64,000 nt of DNA from Octopus vulgaris (GCA_951406725.2 OX597826.1:23498001-23562000), one strand, 5' to 3'. Positions 9,216 through 62,205 are shown, numbered from the stretch's first letter. Notes: generated by a model from the sequence alone, not told the origin. Numbers and translations are program-made.

Positions 9216-9254
<39 letters not shown>

Positions 9255-9261
<7 letters not shown>

Positions 9262-9439
9262 TTCGAGACAAAACCACTATTTTGCAAATCAAACAAGGAA
9301 AGACTTCATCAATACATAAAAAATTTTAATATAAAGTAAATAAATAAATATTTATTTACTTTATATTAAAATTTTTTATGTATTGATTAAGTCTTTCCTT
9401 GTTTGATTTGCAAATAGTGGTTTTGTCTCGAATTAATAT
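9255..9439. repeat. Near-perfect ~185-bp palindrome
   Basis: ATTAATTCGAGACAAAACCACTATT..GTAAATAAA / TTTATTTAC..AATAGTGGTTTTGTCTCGAATTAAT with a spacer of ~6 nt. Confidence 0.9.
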
Positions 9440-9730
9440 TATATAATATTTTACTATAAAATTGGATTTAATCCTAAATCTGATTTTTTTTCCCTGTAAT
9501 TTTGGATTTATTCCCTAATATTTATTATTATTATATATATATATATATATATATACATACATACATATATACATACATACTTACATATATGCATAATTTA
9601 TTTGATGAAATTTATTGAACTTTGTTTATTAAATTAAGTCTGATATTAATTATATATATATATATATATATATATTGTGTGTGTGTGTGTATGTATGTAT
9701 GTATATACACATACATATACTTACATATAT

Positions 9731-17762: not shown

Positions 17763-18478
17763 GGATCTTTTCCTTTTGAACGGCACATGTCAACACAATT
17801 TCTAGTCAACTAAACACTTTTAAACTTCGTATACTGGTAGAATGTGTTTATAAAACATAATTTTTTGTTGGCTTTATTGAGAAAATTCTATAGTTTGTAA
17901 GATATTTCGTCTGAAAATTCGAGTATTTCGGCAAATTTAACCAATCGCTGACCTCCATTTGGGGTGAAAACATACCGTGCTGTATGAATATGTCCCTCGT
18001 TTAAGAAACAGATTGGGTTTATTTGCATTTGCGAAGAAAAAAAAGATACCCTTCCCCCACCCCTAACCCTAAACCTAACTCTCACCCTAAATCCAAAATA
18101 GATTGAAATGCAATAGATCGATACTAGGGTTATAATTATGGGTGACATTTTCATTTGACACCGCTTGAAAAAAATCCCATTTTCCGTAGCGGTGTGGTAT
18201 GAAATTGTCACCCATAATTATAACCCTAGTATCGATCTATTGCATTTCAATCTATTTTAGGATCTTTTCTGTTTGATGGACGGAATTTTCTAGTTAACTA
18301 AAAAATTTGAAACTTCGTATACTGATAGAATGTGTCAAAAGAAGACATTGCTGTAAACAAAATTGAAAACAAAATTGTAATTTGTAACTTAAACGTAGTT
18401 TAATTTTACGAATTTTAACCAATGAAATCCCAGCATTGCTGCGTTATCGATATTGATAAAGAAATGTAGCAGACGCAC

Positions 18479-18514
<36 letters not shown>

Positions 18515-19659
18515 CTCTCTCTCTCTCTCAAACACATGCATATACATTTGCACAAGCACATAGTAATTAATATATAAGCGTACACACACATACAAACGGA
18601 CATATACATACACACACATACGCACACAAGCATACATACACGTTCGTGAGTTGCCCCTTGCCGTAACAAATTTACACAAAAGGTAAATAAACCAGAAGGG
18701 GGGGGGTCAATGTTTCATCGTTTCGGGGTCGATAAATTAAGTACCAATTACGCACTGGTACCGAGGATTTTTTTCCCAATTTATATCACAGCTTCCGACA
18801 AGCTGGGGGCATCCTTTTATGAAAAAATATTTCGCAAAATTTTTACAATACTACTCACACTCCACGCGCAAACTTGAGACCGATTTAGGCATATTATTGT
18901 TTTGTTTTTGTTGTTTCTGGCCCTTCAAAACCATGGGAGAAGCCTTTTCGGTAAAAAAAAAATAAAGAAAATATTAAAAAAATATCGTTAATATTTTTAT
19001 TGGGAGACGAAATTCATCGATTTAAGAGATATAGCTGTTATTTCTAGCACATGTAGAAGACAGAAGAGAGAGAAAGGATGAATAAGACGTGTGCGTGTGA
19101 GTTTTTAGACGCAGCAAATAATTTGAGCTCGAATGCTGCGATTTCATTGGTTAAAATTCGTAGAATTAAACTACGTTAAAGTTACGAATTACAATTTTGT
19201 TTTCAATTTTGTTTACAATAATGTTTTCTTTTGACACATTCTACAAGTATACGAAGTTTCAAATTGTTTAGTTAACTAGAAAATTCCGTCCATCAAACAG
19301 AAAAGATCCCTATTTTAGATTTAGGGTGAGAGTTAGGGTGAGGGTTAGGGTTAGGGTTAGGGGTGGGGGAAGGGTATCTTTTTTTCTTCGCAAATGTAAA
19401 TAAACCCAATCTGTTTCTTAAACGAGGGACATATTCATGCAGCACGGAATGTTGTTTACCTAAATGGACGTATTTGATTGGTTAAAATTGCCGAAATGCT
19501 CGAAATTAAAGTCAAAATATGTTACAACATATAGAATTTTCTCAATAAAGTTAAGAAAAAATGATGTTTTATAAACACATTCTACCTGTATACGAAGTTT
19601 AAAAGTGTGTAGTTAAGTAGAAATTGTGATGACATGTGCCGTTCAAAAGGAAAAGATCC
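17763..19659. mobile_element. Foldback MITE (GGATCTTTTCC termini) with internal (TTAGGG)-like repeats; hosts a nested relative
   Basis: Arms of ~410 bp are complementary around a centre near 18175. Flanks are TATTATTA on both sides. CCCTAA repeats at ~18060, TTAGGG at ~19320-19362. Confidence 0.88.
18260..19309. mobile_element. Nested MITE of the same GGATC-TIR family
   Basis: Long TIRs GGATCTTTTCTGTTTGATGGACGGAATTTTCTAGTTAAC. 8-bp TSD CTATTTTA at 18252-18259 and 19310-19317. Confidence 0.9.
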
Positions 19660-22524: not shown

Positions 22525-22711
22525 GGATCTTTTCCTTTTGATAGCCAGATTTCAACACAATTTCTAGTTAAACAAACGAATTACAAATTTATCAAAAAAG
22601 CCAAGTGAAAATAATGTTTTCTTTTGACACATTCTACCAGTATACGAAGTTTTAAAGTGTTTAGTTAACTAGAAATTGTGTTGAAATCTGGCTATCAAAA
22701 GGAAAAGATCC
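22525..22711. mobile_element. Short MITE of the GGATC-TIR family
   Basis: ~45-bp TIRs. 8-bp TSD CCCTATTC / CCCAATTC (1 mismatch). Confidence 0.85.
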
Positions 22712-22947: not shown

Positions 22948-23587
22948 TTTAAAAAAATTATTTTTTGTAACTAAACACTTTCAAACTTCGGACACTAGTA
23001 GAATGTGTCATATAAAACATCTTTTACTCTTAGTGTTTTTGAGAGAAGCTTATATTTAGGAAGTTATTTCACGTTAAAGTTGTCGTATTTCGGCAATTTC
23101 AACCAATCAATGACGTGTATTCAGCTGAATAGAGTTACTGCTGTTGTTTGTCAACAACAACTATCGGTGGTGTATATTTCGTTTGTCACTGTTATGTATG
23201 ACATAGTTCGTGCGTTTGTACTGGTTTTAGCTTTAAGGTTTTAGGGTTAGGGTTAGGGTTTTAGGGTTAGGGTTTTAAGGTTAGGGTTAAGGTTTTAGGG
23301 TTAGGGTTGTCATAAATAATAGTGACAAACGAAATATACACCGCTGGAAGTTGTTGTTGACAAACAACAGCAGTAATTTTATTCAGTTGAATACACGTCA
23401 TTGATTGGTTAAAATTACCGAAATACGACAACTTTAACGTGAAATAACTTCCTAAATATAAGCTTCTCTCAAAAACACTACGAATAAAAGATGTTTTATA
23501 TGACACATTCTACCAGTGTCCGAAGTTTGAAAGTGTTTAGTTACAAAAAATTATTTTTTAAATTTGTAGGTCAAAAGGTAAAGATCC
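22948..23587. mobile_element. Foldback MITE (GGATC family, left end lost) with a (TTAGGG)n spacer
   Basis: Arms 22948-23200 and 23310-23560 are complementary. Spacer has TTAGGG/TTTTAGGG repeats. Right end is AAAGATCC. Confidence 0.85.
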
Positions 23588-31394: not shown

Positions 31395-31621
31395 ACTCTT
31401 TACTCTTTTACTTATTTCAGTCATTTGATAGCGGCCATGCTGGAGCACCGCCTTTTAGTCGAGCAAATCGACCCCAGGACTTATTTTTTGTAAGCCTAAT
31501 ACTTATTCTATCGGGCTCTTTTGCCGAACCGCTAAGTTACAGGGACGTAAACACACCAACATCGGTTGTAGCGATGTTGGGGAGACAAACACAGACACAC
31601 AAACATATACACATACATACA

Positions 31622-31650
<29 letters not shown>
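31395..31650 (-). mobile_element. 3' half of a family A SINE whose internal microsatellite received the large PLE insertion
   Basis: SINE tail and body run into (TACA)/(TA)n. The matching 5' part reappears at 41222-41295. Confidence 0.7.
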
Positions 31651-31703
<53 letters not shown>

Positions 31704-31786
31704 GGTCCCGGGTTGATTCGGGGTTAACCACAGTAAGTAAGGTACTCAATACATAGCAGAGTAAAATTAATTTATTATATAGAAGG

Positions 31787-31837
31787 AGCTTCTACAGGAC
31801 TAGTACTGTTTCATTCAAGAGAAATCTTCAGGAAGCT
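31787..31837 (-). ncRNA. Type I hammerhead ribozyme motif (left arm terminus)
   Basis: Minus: AGCTTC CTGAAGA TTTC-TCTT-GAAT GAAA CAG-TACTAGTC-CTG TA GAAGCT. Confidence 0.8.
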
Positions 31838-32999
31838 ATTTAACAAGAATTGTATTAGCATTTATACATTTAGGCAGGTTTAAAGGAGTGGTGGTGGGGG
31901 ACTTTTTGGGGGTAGGCATAGCGCAAAATATCATACTTGGGGGAGTGGTCAAGGAGTCAGTGGTAAGTTAGATGAAAGAATAGATAAATAAAAAAATAAA
32001 AAAATAAAAAAATAAAAAAATAAAAAATATATATAAAAAATATATATATAAAAAATATATATATAAAAAAATGGGGGGATAGAGTTATAGGTAAATAAGG
32101 AGATTCTCACTTATACCTATACACACATGTATACGTATCTACACACACATACATACATACACATATATATACACACACATATATATACATATATATATAT
32201 ATAATACACACATACATACATATCTACATACACACATACATACACCCGCCCACATATACAAATTTATACACATGCACATGCCTATACCTGTCTACACATA
32301 CACACACGTATATATGCATACACTCACTCCCATGCATGCACGCATACACACATGTATATATATATATATATACCCACGACCACACATACATATATACACA
32401 TAAAAATATATATTCATACGCACATACACTCATGCACACACAACACACCTAGTTCCCTATATACACATATTTACACCTATATATACATACACCCACATAC
32501 ACCTATGTACACATATATATATATAAACATATACACGCATACATATATATACATGTGTGCACATACATACATACACACATATATACATACACATACACAT
32601 ACACATGTGTACCTATACATACCTACACATACACACATACATACATACAAATATACGTATACATATATATATATACAATCCAATACAGGCCCATTCCCTA
32701 ATTTTAATTTTATTATCTTCATTTATTACTTTTGTTATCTTTGATCGCTAGAGCTAAGAATCCTGGCAATGGCTGCATGTCCATTTGTCTGTCTACTAGA
32801 AGGCAAGTACTCATTCCCGCACGCACACTCATTAGCACGTACATTCACCCATTCGTACACTCATACACATACACGTACGCACGCGTTATATTCATACATA
32901 CAAACATCTACATACGTTCACGTATATACACATACGTACTCGTACCTACAGATTCGTGTCTACACTTTAGGAGGCTAGTCTATACATATACACCAATAA

Positions 33000-33044
<45 letters not shown>

Positions 33045-33094
33045 CACATATACATACACACACACACATATATACTCCTACATACAGATACATA

Positions 33095-33137
<43 letters not shown>

Positions 33138-33319
33138 CACATACATACACATACACACATACATATACACACACATACATACACATATATATACATACAC
33201 AAACATATATACACACATATATATATACATACACACATACACACATACATACGTATACATACATCCATACATCCATACATCCATACTTACATGCATTTAT
33301 ACGCATACACACACCCATC

Positions 33320-33350
<31 letters not shown>

Positions 33351-33631
33351 TCACACATACATATACAAATCTACGCACACACATACATACATACATACAC
33401 GTATACGCATACACGCACATACACATATACATGCGTACCCATACACGTGCACACACGCACGCGCATCCATATATATACACACACACACATATATATACAC
33501 GTGTGCAAGCATACATACATACTCATACGCGCACACATACTTACATATACATATATGCACACACTTACACACATATATATACATACACATATACATGCAT
33601 ACATACATATATACATACATACACACACGCA

Positions 33632-33673
<42 letters not shown>

Positions 33674-33736
33674 TATATACATATATACATATATATACAC
33701 ATACATACACATACACATACATACACACATATACAC

Positions 33737-33768
<32 letters not shown>

Positions 33769-33981
33769 TATACACATACATATATACACATATACATACA
33801 TATACATACACACACACATACATATATACATATACACTGATACACATACCCATACATACACATGCATATACTTATATCACTACATACTCACATATATAAA
33901 CATATATACATATACACATACATACATATACATGTATATACACATACGTATGCATATATATATATATACATATATATACAC

Positions 33982-34016
<35 letters not shown>

Positions 34017-34670
34017 TACATATACACATATACATGTATACATACGCAAAAATGATACACATATATACACATACACACACACAGACAGATGCATATACAT
34101 ACATATATATATATAAACTACATATCTATATAAATACATACATAATACACATATACACACACATATATATACATTCCTGCATATACATATACAAGTATAC
34201 ATACACATACATACACACACACGCGCACACATACATATACACACACACATATACAAATACATACATACACACATACACACACACATATATATATATATAT
34301 ACATACATGTACACATATACATATGTATATATATATCAACAAGGGAGGGTAAAGTTAATTAGTTATTAATCAATTTCATCAAGTGTTCAGTATGTAAAGG
34401 GACCATTATTATTTTGAGTAAACAATGTTAGAGGGAAAAAAATTCTCTAAGTAGTGGAAGAGGCTAAAAAACTTTATTGGCTGCTATTTCTAGAAAGTTT
34501 AGTATGTGGCAAAGTAATTTATTTTATTTTCCTAAGCCCTAATTATATAATATTTTATACATACATACACATACATAAGCACATACATTTACACATACAT
34601 ATGCATATACATATATACACATATACATACAAACACATATACACATATACACACACACACACATACAAGC

Positions 34671-34713
<43 letters not shown>

Positions 34714-34962
34714 AATATATATACATATATATTTTTACATGCATACATACACACACACACACATAATACATGCGTATATTCCTACTGTACCCATGCATTT
34801 CTATACATATATACATACATACGATACACATATACAAGCGTGCACATATAATATGTGAAAGGTCTTAGGAGAAAAGGTAATCGGGGGTGCTAGGGGAACA
34901 GTGGGGTTGGGGGGGGGTTGTAGGGGGGGTTGTAGGGGGGGGGGTTGTAGGGGGGGTTGTCA

Positions 34963-36310
34963 TCAATCAGGTTGCCGGGTAGGTCTATAGTTCTTGTAGT
35001 TCGCATACTTCTTATGCATGCAATTTGGGGAGTGTTCTGAAAATTTGTTAAGGAGAGGGCCTTTGGCGAACAAGATCTCTAGGCTCTCTGATATGCATAG
35101 GTCACAGCAGGTATGTCCTCCTGTGTACGAGCGCGCCTTCTGTAGTAGTTTCCACTTGGTCTTGAAGGGGATTGAGTTCCTTTTAAGGTACCAGATGTGG
35201 GCGGCGAGGGTAGTTTGGTTGGATTTATCCTGTCGCCGGAACGAGTGTGTATGTGCGTACCAGCGGGTCTTAAAGCTGTTTGACGTCATTCCAATGTAGG
35301 ATTTACTTTTATCGTCAAGGCCTGATCTTACCTCGCATTTATATACTAGGTCCCTCTGTAGGCAGTTGTTGTTGAGGGGGCAGGTGGTTTTATCATGGCA
35401 GTTGCAATTGCTATCGGACGTTGGATGGGCCCCGGAGAAAGTAGATATGTTAAGTTTTTTCACATTGTTGTTGGCTAGGTTCCTGGCTAGGTTGGGCGTG
35501 GTAGAGTAGGAGAGTCTAATAGTGTTCTTATTTAGGATAGTGTAGTACTTATGTTGGGTGGGGAAGTGTTTCTGTAGGAGAGTGAAAAGATCTTAGCTAC
35601 AGGTGTAGCGACCTCACGGTTGAAGGGGGGTTGTACCAGCTAATGTGTCTTCGTCTATTTTTCCTGGGTTGGCGTGGGGCTATACTAGTGTAGGTAATCT
35701 TATCTTTAAAACCACTGCGGGCCAGGGCCTCGTTGTAATAGGGGGCTGCGGCCTTAAAGATATCTTCCGTGGCGGACAGGCTAGAGATTCTAATTGAGAC
35801 ACTTTTTACTAGGTTATCTAATATATTTCTGGGGTGGTTGGAATTGATATCTATATATCTAAGGGATTCATTTGGTTTGTGGTACGGGTAATAAAGTGAG
35901 GTTTTTAAGTCGAGGGTGACATCTAGGAAGTTAGCCTTTGTTAAGTTGGATTCTAGGGTAATCCTAAGGCCTAAGTTTTTAAAGAAGGTGTGAAGATTTT
36001 TCCGGAACCCATCCGTGGTCCTGGGGTTTATATTGTGGAGGGCGAAAAGGCCGTCATCTCGGTAAAGACCACCGGAGAGGCCTGTGAATAGGGTTTTCAG
36101 CCTATGGAGGATGAAAAGGCCCACTAGGTCACTTATTTCAGCAGAGTCGTTAGCACCCATGCTGACGTCGAAGGGGGTCACAGATTTTTTGTTGATCCAG
36201 TGGGATCCGTCATAGAAAAGAAAAGTCTTACGTGCGTGGAGGATCACATCTTGCTCGGCCTCGGTGATGGTGGAGGACCTCCTGGCGAAGTTAATCGCAT
36301 CGATCAGCAA
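34963..36310 (-). pseudogene. PLE RT C-terminus + GIY-YIG, split by a 1-nt frameshift at the YNPP(F) poly-C
   Basis: ORFs 35597-36310 and 34963-35463 join (YNPPFNREVATPVAK..) if one C is restored. Confidence 0.85.
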
Positions 36311-36376
36311 GCTCTCCGATATAGAGGCGTAGTAATCCTCGATATCCAGTTGTAGGAATCGGGTGTTGCTTAAAAA

Positions 36377-37584
36377 CCTCGACTTAAAAACCTCACTTTA
36401 TTACCCGTACCACAAACCAAATGAATCCCTTAGATATATAGATATCAATTCCAACCACCCCAGAAATATATTAGATAACCTAGTAAAAAGTGTCTCAATT
36501 AGAATCTCTAGCCTGTCCGCCACGGAAGATATCTTTAAGGCCGCAGCCCCCTATTACAACGAGGCCCTGGCCCGCAGTGGTTTTAAAGATAAGATTACCT
36601 ACACTAGTATAGCCCCACGCCAACCCAGGAAAAATAGACGAAGACACATTAGCTGGTACAACCCCCCTTCAACCGTGAGGTCGCTACACCTGTAGCTAAG
36701 ATCTTTTTCACTCTCCTACAGAAACACTTCCCCACCCAACATAAGTACTACACTATCCTAAATAAGAACACTATTAGACTCTCCTACTCTACCACGCCCA
36801 ACCTAGCCAGGAACCTAGCCAACAACAATGTGAAAAAACTTAACATATCTACTTTCTCCGGGGCCCATCCAACGTCCGATAGCAATTGCAACTGCCATGA
36901 TAAAACCACCTGCCCCCTCAACAACAACTGCCTACAGAGGGACCTAGTATATAAATGCGAGGTAAGATCAGGCCTTGACGATAAAAGTAAATCCTACATT
37001 GGAATGACGTCAAACAGCTTTAAGACCCGCTGGTACGCACATACACACTCGTTCCGGCGACAGGATAAATCCAACCAAACTACCCTCGCCGCCCACATCT
37101 GGTACCTTAAAAGGAACTCAATCCCCTTCAAGACCAAGTGGAAACTACTACAGAAGGCGCGCTCGTACACAGGAGGACATACCTGCTGTGACCTATGCAT
37201 ATCAGAGAGCCTAGAGATCTTGTTCGCCAAAGGCCCTCTCCTTAACAAATTTTCAGAACACTCCCCAAATTGCATGCATAAGAAGTATGCGAACTACAAG
37301 AACTATAGACCTACCCGGCAACCTGATTGATGACAACCCCCCTACAACCCCCCTACAACCCCCCTACAACCCCCCTACAACCCCCCCCCAACCCCACTGT
37401 TCCCCTAGCACCCCCGATTACCTTTTCTCCTAAGACCTTTCACATATTATATGTGCACGCTTGTATATGTGTATCGTATGTATGTATATATGTATAGAAA
37501 TGCATGGGTACAGTAGGAATATACGCATGTATTATGTGTGTGTGTGTGTTTGTATGCATGTAAAAATATATATGTATATATATT

Positions 37585-37625
<41 letters not shown>

Positions 37626-38281
37626 GCTTGTATGTGTGTGTGTGTGTATATGTGTATATGTGTTTGTATGTATATGTGTATATATGTATATGCATATGTA
37701 TGTGTAAATGTATGTGCTTATGTATGTGTATGTATGTATAAAATATTATATAATTAGGGCTTAGGAAAATAAAATAAATTACTTTGCCACATACTAAACT
37801 TTCTAGAAATAGCAGCCAATAAAGTTTTTTAGCCTCTTCCACTACTTAGAGAATTTTTTTCCCTCTAACATTGTTTACTCAAAATAATAATGGTCCCTTT
37901 ACATACTGAACACTTGATGAAATTGATTAATAACTAATTAACTTTACCCTCCCTTGTTGATATATATATACATATGTATATGTGTACATGTATGTATATA
38001 TATATATATATATGTGTGTGTGTATGTGTGTATGTATGTATTTGTATATGTGTGTGTGTATATGTATGTGTGCGCGTGTGTGTGTATGTATGTGTATGTA
38101 TACTTGTATATGTATATGCAGGAATGTATATATATGTGTGTGTATATGTGTATTATGTATGTATTTATATAGATATGTAGTTTATATATATATATGTATG
38201 TATATGCATCTGTCTGTGTGTGTGTATGTGTATATATGTGTATCATTTTTGCGTATGTATACATGTATATGTGTATATGTA

Positions 38282-38320
<39 letters not shown>

Positions 38321-38525
38321 GTGTATATATATGTATATATATATATATGCATACGTATGTGTATGTACATGTATATGTGTATGTGTGTATATGTATATAT
38401 GTTTATATATGTGAGTATGTAGTGATATAAGTATATGCATGTGTATGTATGGGTATGTGTATCAGTGTATATGTATATATGTATGTGTGTGTGTATGTAT
38501 ATGTATGTATATGTGTATATATGTA

Positions 38526-38558
<33 letters not shown>

Positions 38559-38623
38559 GTGTGTATATGTGTGTATGTATGTGTATGTGTATGTATGTGT
38601 ATATATATGTATATATGTATATA

Positions 38624-38665
<42 letters not shown>

Positions 38666-39153
38666 TGCGTGTGTGTATGTATGTATATATGTATGTATGC
38701 ATGTATATGTGTATGTATATATATGTGTGTAAGTGTGTGCATATATGTATATGTAAGTATGTGTGCGCGTATGAGTATGTATGTATGCTTGCACACGTGT
38801 ATATATATGTGTGTCTGTGTATATATATGGATGCGCGTGCGTGTGTGCACGTGTATGGGTACGCATGTATATGTGTATGTGCGTGTATGCGTATACGTGT
38901 ATGTATGTATGTGTGTGCGTAGATTTGTATATGTATGTGTGAGTGTGTATATATATATATATATATACATATATATAGATGGGTGTGTGTATGCGTATAA
39001 ATGCATGTAAGTATGGATGTATGGATGTATGTATGTATGTATACGTATGTATGTGTGTATGTGTGTATGTATATATATATGTGTGTATATATGTTTGTGT
39101 ATGTATATATATGTGTATGTATGTGTGTGTATATGTATGTGTGTATGTGTATG

Positions 39154-39203
<50 letters not shown>

Positions 39204-39253
39204 TATGTATCTGTATGTAGGAGTATATATGTGTGTGTGTGTATGTATATGTG

Positions 39254-39302
<49 letters not shown>

Positions 39303-40107
39303 TTATTGGTGTATATGTATAGACTAGCCTCCTAAAGTGTAGACACGAATCTGTAGGTACGAGTACGTATGTGTATATACGTGAACGTATGTAGATGTTT
39401 GTATGTATGAATATAACGCGTGCGTACGTGTATGTGTATGAGTGTACGAATGGGTGAATGTACGTGCTAATGAGTGTGCGTGCGGGAATGAGTACTTGCC
39501 TTCTAGTAGACAGACAAATGGACATGCAGCCATTGCCAGGATTCTTAGCTCTAGCGATCAAAGATAACAAAAGTAATAAATGAAGATAATAAAATTAAAA
39601 TTAGGGAATGGGCCTGTATTGGATTGTATATATATATATGTATACGTATATTTGTATGTATGTATGTGTGTATGTGTAGGTATGTATAGGTACACATGTG
39701 TATGTGTATGTGTATGTATATATGTGTGTATGTATGTATGTGCACACATGTATATATATGTATGCGTGTATATGTTTATATATATATATGTGTACATAGG
39801 TGTATGTGGGTGTATGTATATATAGGTGTAAATATGTGTATATAGGGAACTAGGTGTGTTGTGTGTGCATGAGTGTATGTGCGTATGAATATATATTTTT
39901 ATGTGTATATATGTATGTGTGGTCGTGGGTATATATATATATATATATACATGTGTGTATGCGTGCATGCATGGGAGTGAGTGTATGCATATATACGTGT
40001 GTGTATGTGTAGACAGGTATAGGCATGTGCATGTGTATAAATTTGTATATGTGGGCGGGTGTATGTATGTGTGTATGTAGATATGTATGTATGTGTGTAT
40101 ATATGTA

Positions 40108-40152
<45 letters not shown>

Positions 40153-40547
40153 GTGTGTGTATATATATGTGTATGTATGTATGTGTGTGTAGATACGTAT
40201 ACATGTGTGTATAGGTATAAGTGAGAATCTCCTTATTTACCTATAACTCTATCCCCCCATTTTTATATATATATATTTTTATATATATATTTTTTTATAT
40301 ATATTTTTTATTTTTTTATTTTTTTATTTTTTTATTTATCTATTCTTTCATCTAACTTACCACTGACTCCTTGACCACTCCCCCAAGTATGATATTTTGC
40401 GCTATGCCTACCCCCAAAAAGTCCCCCACCACCACTCCTTTAAACCTGCCTAAATGTATAAATGCTAATACAATTCTTGTTAAATAGCTTCCTGAAGATT
40501 TCTCTTGAATGAAACAGTACTAGTCCTGTAGAAGCTCCTTCTATATA

Positions 40548-40552
<5 letters not shown>
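36377..40552 (+). mobile_element. Inverted copy (right arm) of the same PLE
   Basis: Reverse complement of ~31770-35915, with identical peptide sequence (36830-37330 = 34963-35463). Confidence 0.95.
40486..40536 (+). ncRNA. Type I hammerhead ribozyme motif (right arm terminus)
   Basis: Stem I AGCTTC/GAAGCT, core CTGAAGA 40492-40498, GAAA 40511-40514, stem III CAG/CTG, GUA site. Confidence 0.8.
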
Positions 40553-40606
<54 letters not shown>

Positions 40607-40810
40607 AGTAGGTGAATGAATTATCCTATGTTTATCGTCAGCATGGAAAATTCGTTTAACCGAAACCTGGGTAGCAAATTCACGTCAGAAAACACGGTTG
40701 AAGCGACCTGTCAAGGGTAGAAACTCCGGGTTCATGTGTAGAAATTTGTGTGTTGTATATGAATAAATGAAAGAATGGAGTCGAACGAAGATGTTAACAA
40801 AATTCCTTTA

Positions 40811-40892
40811 CTCTCGACACATGTTTCGAAGACAGCATGTTTTCATTCCAAAGGAATAAAGGGTGCATTATGCAATCTTCTCATCAGGAAAG
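40811..40892 (-). ncRNA. Hammerhead ribozyme motif, minus-strand copy in the hairpin
   Basis: Reverse complement of 40971-41052. Confidence 0.8.
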
Positions 40893-40970
40893 AAAGGGAG
40901 CCTCTCTCGACAACAAGACAAACAAAAAAGCGATAATGAGTGTGTATTGTTGTTGAGAGAGGCTCCCTTT

Positions 40971-41052
40971 CTTTCCTGATGAGAAGATTGCATAATGCAC
41001 CCTTTATTCCTTTGGAATGAAAACATGCTGTCTTCGAAACATGTGTCGAGAG
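40971..41052 (+). ncRNA. Type I hammerhead ribozyme motif with canonical core and expanded stem II
   Basis: CTTTC CTGATGA GAAGA-(43 nt)-TCTTC GAAA CATGTG TC GAGAG; GUC site at 41045-41047. Confidence 0.82.
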
Positions 41053-41150
41053 TAAAGGAATTTTGTTAACATCTTCGTTCGACTCCATTCTTTCATTTAT
41101 ATATATATATATATGTTGATATTAAAATTAATATTAATTTATCTCCCTCA

Positions 41151-41214
<64 letters not shown>

Positions 41215-41291
41215 CATATATATACGACGGCCCGAGGCTACAGTAGAAGACACTTGCCCATGGTGCCACGCAGTGGGGAATGAACCCGGAA

Positions 41292-41339
<48 letters not shown>

Positions 41340-42919: not shown

Positions 42920-43097
42920 TATTTAAGTATAATTATATAAAATATAATTATAATAAGGGCGCTGAAACGACAACGCCTGCACGCTAGAAATAGACCCAAA
43001 ATGGTCCACAAAGCACTTAAGTTATTACTCCAGCGTGCAGGTATTGTCGTTTCAATGCCCTTATTATAATTACATTTTATATAATTATACTTAAATA
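42920..43097. repeat. Imperfect inverted repeat, ~66-bp arms
   Basis: TATTTAAGTATAATT..AAGGGCGCTGAAACGACAACGCCTGCACGCT vs AGCGTGCAGGTATTGTCGTTTCAATGCCCTT..ATACTTAAATA. Confidence 0.85.
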
Positions 43098-44214: not shown

Positions 44215-45245
44215 TAACAGAAAAGAGGAATTTCGGTTGTCCCCACGTGGTGGGTTGTAATGTATATAAGAAATTAAAAGAGGAAAATACGCACATTTAC
44301 ATGGTTTTAATATATCGACCGGTTTCGCTATCGCTATTCATGATATAATGTTTAATTTATATGAATATATATTTTTTCTTAAGAAGAAATTTGGTCCATG
44401 TTGTGTGTGATGAAATTCACGAGTGAATGACTTTACATGTAGACAAATAAAGGGAGGTAATTGGTTGTTATTATTGTTATTGTTGCGTGTAAGGGAGATA
44501 ACTGTTCACGTTTTGGGTGGGGAATAAATATGTGTACAGAAAAGAGACAGGTTTTTAAAAAAGACCTTGTTTAGTAGGGGATTTATGTACAGTGATGTAA
44601 TATGTAAAAATATAAAAGTTGGTTATGCGTGCATATTAAGACGTGTTTTGTATTTTTCAATGAAAAAAGTTTCTTTATTTAAGCGTTCTAGTTGAGAGAT
44701 TGCGTCTTTGTACTGGTAGAAAGGGAAGACTGTGAAATTTGGTTTGATGTTACCTGCACATTTTTCTATGTGTTCACTAAGAGGAATTTGTCTGTATTGC
44801 GGGAAACGGATTTGCTCCTTATGCAGAGTGATTCTCTTTCTCAAAGTTAAACTCGTTTGTCCAATGTACTGATGACCGCAACCCGAGCAGGTTATTACAT
44901 AAATTAGGTAAACAGAGGCACAGGTGAAACTAGTTTTAATTGTGAACCTCTGTCCTTGTTTGAAAAGGAAATCCGAGCCTTCAAGCAGGTTGGGGCAGGT
45001 TCCACAGTTCGGGCGTCCACATTTTTCAACCGTTGGTTTCGTGGTTGTTTTGTAAAGCTACGCATTTGTTAGTAGTCTCTTTAGCGATTTGTCTTGTTTT
45101 TTACATTTGATGAGTTTGTGTGTTTTCAGGATGTCGTTCATTTTTGGATCTCTAGTTAGTAAATGGAGAGTTTGCACAATAGTGTTGAATGCCTCACTGT
45201 TTCTGGGGTTGTTTGTTGATATAAAAAGTAATGTTTTGGTTTGAG
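44215..45245 (-). mobile_element. Penelope-like element, 3' fragment (GIY-YIG + terminal region)
   Basis: CGRPNCGTC, FTCAS..LIYVITCSGC..QYIGQT..LRKRITLH..H. Flanked by microsatellites. Confidence 0.85.
44311..44347 (-). ncRNA. Minimal hammerhead variant with an A3:U8 core
   Basis: Minus: TATATC ATGAATA GC-GATA-GC GAAA CCGG TC GATATA. Confidence 0.65.
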
Positions 45246-46100: not shown

Positions 46101-46214
<114 letters not shown>

Positions 46215-46543
46215 CAACCTGGTAGTTGGAGCAGAACTCCGGAAGTGATAAGAAGCCAAAAGGGTATGCTCCCGCTTTCAGTGTTCCCAAATCCGAATGA
46301 AGGAGTTCTGAGCTGACGAAAGAAATGTCGATTTGACTAATCTAGAAACGTACGTTCTCAAATAACCTTTGCATTTGTGATTTTTTAATGTCTTTACCCC
46401 CATATCTTCGTGAGTTGACTTGAGCAAAGACTATATGAGAGAGATTTTCTTTAAGTATTAGAAATAGTTTAAAAAAATTTTTTTAGCTGCTATTTCTAAT
46501 GAGTTCAGTATGTGGCAAAGTAATTTATTTTACTAAGCCCTTT

Positions 46544-56943: not shown

Positions 56944-57089
56944 TATATACACATATACAAATATATATACATATATATACATATATATATATATACATAT
57001 ATATATACATATATATACACACACATATATATACATATATATACATATATATATACATATACATATATATATATATACATATATCTCTC

Positions 57090-57502
57090 TTTACTCTTTT
57101 ACTCTTTTACATGTTTCAGTCATTTGACTGCGGCCATGCTGGAGCACCGCCTTTAGTCGAGCAAATCGACCCCGGGACTTATTCTTTGTAAGCCCAGTAC
57201 TTATTCTATCGGTCTCTTTTGCCAAACCGCTAAGTGACGGGGACGTAAGCACACCAGCATCGGTTGTCAAGCAATGCTAGGGGGACAAACACAGACACAC
57301 AAACATATACACACACACTTATATATATATACATATATACGACAGGCTTCTTTCAGTTTCCGTCTACCAAATCCACTCACAAGGCATTGGTCAGCCCGGG
57401 GCTATAGCAGAAGACACTTGCCCAAGATGCCACGCAGTGGACTGAACCCGGAACCATGTAGTTGGTTAGCAAGCTACTTACCACACAGCCACTCCTGCGC
57501 CT
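57090..57502 (-). mobile_element. SINE family A, full length
   Basis: Reverse complement of the 55301 copy. Confidence 0.9.
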
Positions 57503-57694
57503 GTATATATATATATACATATATATATATATACATATACATATATATATATACATATATACATACATATATATACATATACATATATATACATATACAT
57601 ATATATACATATACATATATACATATATATATACATATATATACATATACATATACATATACATATATATACATATACATATATATATATATAT

Positions 57695-60240: not shown

Positions 60241-62205
60241 TGGCACATCATGTATGATGTGATGTGTAAAGTCGTGTGGTGTAGTGTGGAGAGAGGAGAT
60301 GAGGGGGTGGGGGGGGAGGGGAGGAGGAGGAAGGAGGAAAGAGGGAGAGGGGGAGAGAGAAGGGGAGTGAGGGAGCAGAGGGAAGGGGAAGAGGGAAGGA
60401 GGGAGGGAGAAAGAGGGAAGAAGGGAAGGGGAGTAGGGGTGAAAGGATGAAGGACTGAAGAAGTAGGGGTCGGGGGAAAGATAGGTGAGGAGGGGGAGAG
60501 GGGGGGTTAGATGAGGAGGGGGGAGAGTTGAGACCAAATGGCTTATAAGAGCGAAGAGAGAAGATTAATTCCTGTTCACGGCGCAAACGGGAATCCGGAT
60601 GGCCTCTGTGTAAGGACAAACCGAACACAGATAGGTGTTGCAAGGAGTGACCGGTGGAGCGGTAATGGCGAGAGACCGGTGTGCCGTTCGCAAGGTGGAT
60701 GTCACGAAGGTGTTCCGCGAACCGGTCAGCCAAGCGGCGTCCCGTTTGTCCGATGTACAAGGAATGGCGGAGAGAGAGCAAGAGACGCAATAGATAATAT
60801 TGCTGGAGGTGCAGGTGAAGGAGTGGATGATGGGATAGGGTCGATGATGGGTGCTAGTGAGGAGGGTGGTGTTGGAGAGGTAAGGGCAAGTGCGGCAACG
60901 TGGGCGGGAGCAGGGGAACGAGCCGGGTTGGGAGGTAGGGTCAGGGAAGGAGCTATGGACCAAAAGGTCTCGAAGGTTGTGGGCTCGTTTGAAAGAGGGG
61001 AGGGGTCGGTTAGGGAAGAGGTGTGAAGTGGACGGGTCGGACTGGAGATGACGGAAAGCTCGAAGAATGGTGCGTTGGAGAGGTAGGGTCGTGGGGTGGT
61101 AAGTGAGGGGAAAAGGGAGGCGGGAGACTACAGGGCGGGTACGGGGAGAGAGAGCAGATACACGGTCCACGGACCGTGCTCTGGCAAGGGCGGTGTGGAT
61201 AGTGGTGAGGGGGTATCCACGTAGGGTGAAGTAGTGAGCCATACGTTGAGACTGAGTCTCAAAGTCATGGTCGTCACTACAGAGCCTACGTAGACGGAGG
61301 AATTGGGAATAGGGGATGGAAAGCTTGGTGTGTTCTGGGTGGGAGGAAGAGAAGTTGAGGTATGAGTGTGAGTCTGTGTGTTTGTAGTGAATGGAGGTGG
61401 TAAGAGTGGAGTGAAGAATGCTAACCGAAATGTCGAGGAAGGAGACAGAGGTGTTGGAGATAGTGGAAGTGAAGTGGAGGGCTGGATGGAAAGATTGGAC
61501 GAAAGAGAGGAAGGAATCTAGATGTTCACGGGAGAGTGAGGTGGCACCGATAATGTCGTCAATGTAACGACCATATAGTTCAGGAGTGGGACCAGTGAAA
61601 TTAGAGAATATTTGGGCCTCAACATAGCCAACGAACAGGTTCGCATAGTTGGGGCCCATTCGCGTTCCCATGGCCACTCCCGAGACCTGATGGTAGAACT
61701 CGCCCGCGAACGAGAAGCAGTTCAGAGTAAGGACAAGTTCGGCCAGACGAATGAGTGTGGAGGTGTCAGGTACAGGGTTGGAGCGGAGGTCAAGAAAGTG
61801 TTGAAGGGCCTGCAGTCCTTCGTGGTGAGGGATAACAGTATAGAGGCTTTGGATGTCCATAGTAAAAAGGATTTTGGAGGAGCCGGGAGGAAAGGAGAAA
61901 GAGTTGAAAAGCCGGAGAGCATGGTTGGTATCGTGGATGTGGGAGGGAAGAGATGCCACTAGGGGGGCAAGGACACGGTCGAGGTATTTAGAGATGAGCT
62001 CCGTGGGGCAGTTACAAGCGGAGACGATGGGGCGGCCAGGGTTGTTGGGTTTGTGGATTTTGGGGAGGAAGTAAATGGCGGGGGTACGTGGGGTTCACAC
62101 AATTAGGTTGGATGCGGTGTGGGGGAGACGGGAGGACGAGATGAGGTCGCGGACAGCAGAGGATACCATCAGTTGGTAGATACGTGTGGGGTTAGAGGGC
62201 AGAGG

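Follow-up and report, generated by a model that had tools for sequence, protein, structure and literature searches.

A palindromic locus in Octopus vulgaris read as a likely single insertion of a Hydra-type Penelope-like element

Introduction

A 64,000-nucleotide stretch of Octopus vulgaris DNA (GCA_951406725.2 OX597826.1:23498001-23562000), which as a whole we call the window, contains an 8.8-kb palindrome with an additional tail on its left side only (31701-40553), and with a hammerhead ribozyme motif near each outer end. This locus raises the question of how such a structure is built, whether it is genuine, and whether any RNA made from it could matter to its host. An earlier note on this DNA had described the palindrome as an unusually long inverted product of a Penelope-like element (PLE), made in one event, from which a read-through transcript would fold into double-stranded RNA (dsRNA) with a self-cleaved 3' end. 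We consider it very probable that the palindrome is composed of two 5'-truncated copies of a Hydra-type PLE, lying head to head in a (TA)n tract, which likely arrived in one recent insertion and are now dead.

Architecture of the palindrome

A global alignment of the left arm, 31770-35915 (4146 nt), with the reverse complement of the right arm, 36377-40553 (4177 nt), proposed in the earlier note as a measure of their divergence, gave 4113 matches, 11 mismatches and 17 gaps, which corresponds to a complementarity of 99.7% and bears out the inverted arms of ~4.15 kb that had been described. Four non-repetitive islands within the arms are free of substitutions (216/216, 293/293 and 207/207 positions, together with a coding part of ~960 nt that has a single 1-nt indel), and the low-complexity mask covers 10 of the 11 substitutions. 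The differences between the arms, which include indels of 27, 8 and 7 nt, are confined to homopolymers and microsatellites and are likely to reflect microsatellite slippage or consensus error. The (TA)n runs noted earlier are indeed found on both flanks (31649-31700 and 40552-40603).

The arms are separated by a spacer of 461 nt (35916-36376). Its description as unduplicated reverse transcriptase (RT) sequence holds for 456 nt, but the remaining 5 nt are junction filler. Similarly, of the two junctions that had been placed at 35915 and 36377, only one is found, as the 35915/35916 boundary is ordinary, continuous element sequence. Comparison of 35916-37335 with contigs from four of 24 listed public sequencing runs (from four studies, one of them possibly the source of the assembly) showed that in all four the contigs connect 35916, on one strand, with 36377 on the other and depart from the window at 36371, so that 36369-36382 alone is new. 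At this junction, 3 nt of microhomology (CTT) and 5 filler nucleotides are accompanied by a 14-nt duplication, nearly in tandem, of the bases with which the right copy begins.

On the minus strand, the left copy extends from 36371 to 31701 (4,673 nt with a shared AT), and the right copy occupies 36377-40553 on the plus strand. Both are oriented outwards, in the order RT end, GIY-YIG endonuclease, 3.15-kb segment and hammerhead. The open reading frame (ORF) remnant of the left copy (34963-36371, minus), 5'-truncated at 36371, retains the RT core, thumb, CxCX5C linker and GIY-YIG domain, and has two 1-nt frameshifts, in a C run near 35630 and in an A run at 35585. Its unduplicated RT core with the YRDD motif (35916-36371, minus) forms the loop of the palindrome. 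The right ORF remnant (36377-37330, plus), 5'-truncated at 36377, retains the RT end, thumb, linker and GIY-YIG domain and carries the same C-run frameshift, at 36661. As both copies are truncated and frameshifted, both are dead.

Only ~950 nt of coding sequence are in fact duplicated, and the arms owe their length to a stretch of 3,155 nt that follows the stop codon and precedes the hammerhead in the right copy (37331-40485, plus; in the left copy 31838-34962, minus). The emphasis on an unusually long inverted product was therefore overstated, since the length is due to this segment. Some 74% of it is low-complexity, mostly microsatellite, and it includes an antisense piece (about 37756-37853, with its left-copy equivalent at 34443-34540) that is ~79% like the end of a hammerhead-bearing repeat found elsewhere in the window, at 46205-46543. 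This composition suggests that the segment may once have been genomic DNA.

A tail is found on the left copy only (31701-31769, minus), of 69 nt, or 71 if the AT that it has in common with the target is counted. Part of this tail (31701-31745, minus) halts at AT, which could possibly be the first two bases of the start codon of a next tandem unit, although this is weak. In one frame, the tail is identical at 5 of 15 positions to the sequence preceding the likely Met of P0001, a level reached by 0.1% of 114,464 15-mers, but as the frame and register were picked post hoc this is a hint only.

The one-sided tail of ~70 nt, the single new junction and the frameshift common to both arms were absent from the earlier description, and it is because of these three features that we read the palindrome as the product of one event. 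Further, the duplicated coding part has 22 places that vary among the contigs, and the two arms are identical at all 22; the C missing at 36661 in both arms is present in a contig in each of the four runs. Judged from these alleles, both arms likely derive from one template. Single-event integration, as the earlier note had it, is thus the best reading.

Identity of the element

The RT core, encoded on the minus strand, carries a YRDD motif, and in protein searches the RT piece is 45-54% identical to the best of many RT-endonuclease proteins of ~700 aa. One of these homologs, from Octopus bimaculoides (P0218), is 53% identical, and no protein found in these searches exceeded 55% identity. The endonuclease piece, which follows the RT piece after one 1-nt frameshift, has a DLVY...YIG signature and, for 117 of 120 homologs, aligns by direct BLAST to their C-terminal part. 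It carries a CxCX5C linker at its residue 79, also present in 51 of the 57 homologs of at least 680 aa, together with the C-terminal motifs CxxC..E (at 179) and CxH (at 207). By eye there is a single Cys between its GIY and YIG halves, unlike the canonical endonuclease encoded at 44626-45057, and the RT is 21% identical over 170 aa to the canonical-type PLE RT of the same window. A PDB sequence search with P0009 gave no match, and a word-seeded search with the endonuclease piece found none among 412 candidates, whereas direct BLAST to the RT homologs did match.

Elements of the Hydra clade are marked by an RT followed by GIY-YIG, a CxCX5C linker, a CxxC/CxH C-terminus, RWK and DKT (not DKG) motifs, a (TA)n target and a 3' hammerhead (PMC8557442). 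The octopus element has an RT with a C-terminal GIY-YIG, the CxCX5C linker, CxxC..E and CxH motifs, a hammerhead motif near its 3' end and a (TA)n insertion site. The N-terminal motifs have been lost from both copies by truncation; among the homologs, RW[KR] is found in 54/57, DK[TS] in 52/57 and DKG in 0/57. A size below 3 kb, which is typical of the clade but not counted as defining, does not apply, as even the truncated copy has 4,673 nt, and a full unit, allowing for ~245 missing codons, would be about 5.4 kb. The homology and the Hydra-clade motifs together substantiate the PLE identity proposed in the earlier note. The combination found here, of a 5'-truncated copy in inverted orientation and a tail confined to one end, is also the typical insertion unit of endonuclease-bearing (EN+) PLEs (PMC8557442), and the concept of the tail is likewise described in PMC3846280 and PMC11167929.

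Another kind of hammerhead-bearing repeat, the non-LTR retrozyme, is made of non-coding units repeated in tandem, head to tail, all of which have a type I hammerhead (bioRxiv 10.64898/2026.07.22.740005). It is ruled out here, as the copies are inverted and encode RT-endonuclease sequence.

Insertion site and its neighbourhood

The palindrome lies within a dispersed repeat resembling a short interspersed nuclear element (SINE). The first part of this repeat (31395-31648, plus), running into its internal microsatellite, is the insertion target; 31395-31640 corresponds to positions 9-256 of an intact SINE-like copy at 57085-57520, with 88% identity. The left (TA)n target tract (31649-31700) follows, and the right tract (40552-40603) begins where the palindrome ends; each has 52 nt, and the left tract shows no readable target-site duplication. 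The second part of the repeat (41213-41293, plus) continues it in register on that strand, apart from an internal deletion: 41230-41298 aligns with the intact copy at positions 310-376 (87%), and 41213-41229 compares by eye with its positions ~245-261.

A second, small PLE-type palindrome occupies the same (TA)n at 40604-41100. It has exact 146-bp arms (40763-40908 and 40955-41100) around a 46-nt centre, type I hammerheads with a long stem II insert at 40811-40892 (minus) and 40971-41052 (plus), and a 159-nt extension on its left only, and it belongs to a family that differs from the large element. Elsewhere in the window, the solo repeat at 46205-46543 stands between two (TA)n runs and has a type I hammerhead motif at 46309-46360, and short palindromes without a hammerhead motif in our scan adjoin (TA)n at 9243-9449 and 42920-43097. 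Canonical-type PLE remnants, all on the minus strand, are found at 577-2749, 44626-45057 (GIY-YIG, PF01541) and 60568-62094 (RT, PF00078), the last of which has a 69% relative at 887-2362. Related inverted-repeat elements at 17763-19659, 22525-22711 and 22949-23562 are likely non-autonomous DNA transposons; the first lies inside a (TAT)n run and contains a nested relative, and the centre of the third has TTAGGG-type repeats.

A probably genuine locus and a likely single insertion

A number of points weigh against our reading. Among the contig pieces listed (24 of 1,210 records, from three DNA runs), none bridges 36371-36377 on one strand, although contigs drop rare forms, and in run X1 the depth in the junction bin implies that the 5 filler bases are uncovered. 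An artefact derived from a single molecule would equally show near-identical arms with common alleles, the C that both arms lack belongs to a homopolymer and may be a systematic sequencing error, and the A-run deletion seen only in the left copy hints at homopolymer sequencing errors. The SINE-like repeat is abundant, with about 15 matching pieces in the window, and given this abundance the palindrome could be flanked by two parts of it by chance. With regard to identity, Pfam recognised neither RT nor GIY-YIG in the three protein pieces (five of the homologs were also without any match), so the assignment of RT and endonuclease was made from homology and motifs, and placement in the Hydra clade appears likely from the same two sources.

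One rival reading is that the palindrome is an assembly or library artefact, namely a fold-back chimera of one element copy that was bridged to the right flank through repeats. Inverted PLE structures are known to trouble assemblers (PMC8557442), and an artefact of this kind would suit arms that carry no substitution in their non-repetitive islands and differ only in homopolymers and microsatellites. The arms nevertheless do differ, by the 27-, 8- and 7-nt indels and the 11 substitutions, and the right arm stops at the element end and then passes into (TA)n instead of mirroring the left flank. The junction holds a templated 14-nt duplication and no adapter. At its outer ends the palindrome meets (TA)n where the element itself ends, it has a tail on one side only, two SINE parts flank it in register, and a small palindrome built in the same way lies beside it, all of which speaks for a genuine locus, and we regard an artefact as improbable.

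Alternatively, a single insertion might later have been duplicated in inverted orientation at the DNA level, by a replication template switch or by break repair, or two insertions might have occurred independently. Microhomology with templated filler is typical of the scars of microhomology-mediated end joining, and the junction here also resembles such break-repair scars; moreover, the site, which has received at least two PLE-type insertions, is a hot spot. On the other hand, nothing in a DNA-level duplication would explain an end 17 nt beyond the hammerhead, at (TA)n, with none of the flank taken along, and copies that had inserted independently would likely disagree at some of the 22 variable places and have (TA)n between them. 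We therefore consider these routes a little less probable again than an artefact, and a genuine, single insertion of the element remains the reading that we follow.

A model for the insertion

How PLEs build inverted units is described as still open (PMC8557442), and two models can be set beside this locus. In the first, the endonuclease would nick both strands of the (TA)n tract, and each nicked 3' end would prime reverse transcription of RNA from one source copy. Two RT start sites ~70 nt apart would leave a tail on one side only. The two complementary DNAs (cDNAs) would then grow inwards and stall inside the RT gene, at 36371 and 36377, and their ends would be joined through the 3-nt microhomology after a 14-nt slip. 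Such a scheme has support from an Anolis PLE protein, which in vitro nicks both strands of the target, extends each of them and begins reverse transcription at two positions on the RNA, between which the tail lies; hammerhead cleavage is unnecessary for this reaction (PMC11167929).

In the second model a single cDNA would fold back on itself and prime its own extension, as has been proposed for PLE inverted structures (PMC3846280). Self-priming also fits the sequence here, and one locus alone cannot separate it from two cDNAs, so it stands as only somewhat the less likely of the two. We would modestly favour two cDNAs, because that model explains the tail directly.

Hammerhead motifs

The same type I hammerhead motif is found near each outer end, as had been reported, at 31787-31837 (minus; predicted cut after 31793) and at 40486-40536 (plus; predicted cut after 40530). 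The layout is identical in the two copies, with a 6-bp stem I, a CUGAAGA core, a 3-bp stem II closed by U.U, GAAA, a 4-bp stem III and a GUA triplet. An equally good motif occurred in none of 200 dinucleotide shuffles of the window, and looser motifs numbered 5 in the window against a mean of 0.01 per shuffle in the same number of shuffles. Rfam gave no match at the gathering score and no hammerhead family at E up to 10, and the isolated fold is no more stable than shuffles (z about 0), with the active fold computed to make up 2.4% of the monomer ensemble. The loop of stem III is near-palindromic. Stem III with its loop (40514-40529) forms a 16-nt palindrome with one mismatch, for which a dimer fold of two molecules is predicted.

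The motif lies 17 nt from the end of the right copy and ~86 nt from the end of the left copy, and neither arm ends at the predicted cut, the right arm extending about 23 nt beyond the cut at 40530. The hammerheads are passengers of the 3' end of the element, and the arm ends are not set by them.

Consequences for RNA

A transcript across the centre would, by computation, fold into a near-perfect hairpin of ~4.1 kb. Within such a read-through RNA the hammerhead would be expected to be buried in duplex, as its own fold is calculated at about -9 kcal/mol and its pairing with the perfect antisense at -116 kcal/mol. The PLE hammerheads of metazoans are poor cleavers, acting as dimers or with the help of protein (PMC4209133, PMC11167929). 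The suggestion of a self-cleaved 3' end on read-through RNA is accordingly weak, with the motif outcompeted by the antisense arm.

For the dsRNA itself, part of the earlier proposal is plausible. Octopus has high hyper-editing and much potential dsRNA, and a lizard Penelope is heavily edited (PMC5625713), so that editing by ADAR is plausible if the locus is transcribed across its centre. A role as a source of endogenous small interfering RNA (endo-siRNA) is weak, as a survey of molluscs, including Octopus, reports no dedicated siRNA or endo-siRNA pathway (PMC12479628). The window's long ORFs include no host exon, those tested or readable being transposon remnants; the unit may lie in an intron.

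These observations also bear on whether the palindrome is a functional dsRNA locus, whose read-through RNA would be cut back by the hammerhead and serve as a precursor of small RNAs. The hairpin would form if transcribed, octopus RNA editing offers a setting for it, and inverted PLE structures in a rotifer yield small RNAs, mostly of the size of Piwi-interacting RNA (PMC3846280). Against this stand the lack of a host exon among the long ORFs, the small share of the active fold and the advantage of the antisense arm, the mollusc survey, and the fact that the insertion is young and without sign of selection. We judge a functional locus of this kind extremely improbable, and a host function is not indicated.

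Significance

We see the locus as a young and clear instance of an insertion pattern already in print, in a Hydra-type family that PMC8557442 does not list. Its value is that of a specimen, in which the tail, the junction and the shared frameshift are visible at the level of single bases. A more far-reaching idea is that the family is about twice the known size, with an RNA that includes 3 kb of captured, microsatellite-filled host DNA, and that its insertions routinely build perfect hairpins of several kilobases. We think this unlikely, but if it were true the family would provide a lasting supply of the long dsRNA that underlies octopus hyper-editing, and its long arms, marked by slippage, could decide between two cDNAs and one fold-back cDNA.

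Comparison with known systems

That PLEs form inverted arrangements carrying hammerheads is an established pattern, as the earlier note had stated, and Penelope-13_HM of the Hydra clade is an example. Its nt 1-966 are a 5'-truncated inverted copy, and each strand carries one hammerhead, at positions 102 and 2944 (PMC8557442 Files S1, S2). The octopus palindrome shares with it the head-to-head inverted copy and the hammerheads at both ends, and even the duplicated length is similar (966 nt against ~950 nt of duplicated coding sequence here). The CUGANGA-U...U-GAA hammerhead layout of many File S2 rows is likewise that of our element, whereas the listed Hydra consensus lengths of 1080-3045 nt contrast with the 4,673 nt of the truncated left copy (PMC8557442). 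Hydra-1_Obim, a 2,507-nt octopus element (PMC8557442), has a different hammerhead and, by eye, a different visible RT part, and because both differ we regard the present element as a separate family. In the literature searched, which did not include Repbase or most subscription papers, we found neither this family nor Hydra arms of such a length described.

Outside the Hydra clade, Pen1-Pen4 of Adineta vaga (PMC3846280) and PAc of Anolis (PMC11167929) resemble the present unit in their head-to-head inversion, one-sided tail and microhomology at the 5' junction. Pen3 and Pen4 have long inverted structures, and Pen1_Av has a captured spacer of 0.9-1.5 kb between its ORF and its 3' pseudo-long terminal repeat (PMC3846280); the segment described here suggests that Hydra-type elements too can carry captured DNA, as Pen1_Av does. 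The octopus unit differs from Penelope/Poseidon units in its clade, in a tail of ~70 nt against 30-40, in a microsatellite-filled spacer of 3.15 kb and in having no readable target-site duplication. PLE fragments in Schistosoma have hammerheads on opposite strands, short stems and a palindromic loop 3 that favours dimers (PMC4209133), in keeping with the homodimer fold predicted here, but their hammerhead pairs lie ~100-700 bp apart (PMC4209133), compared with 8.7 kb in the octopus. The layout of the palindrome is therefore one already published, and what is unusual about it is only the 3-kb, repeat-filled segment at its ends.

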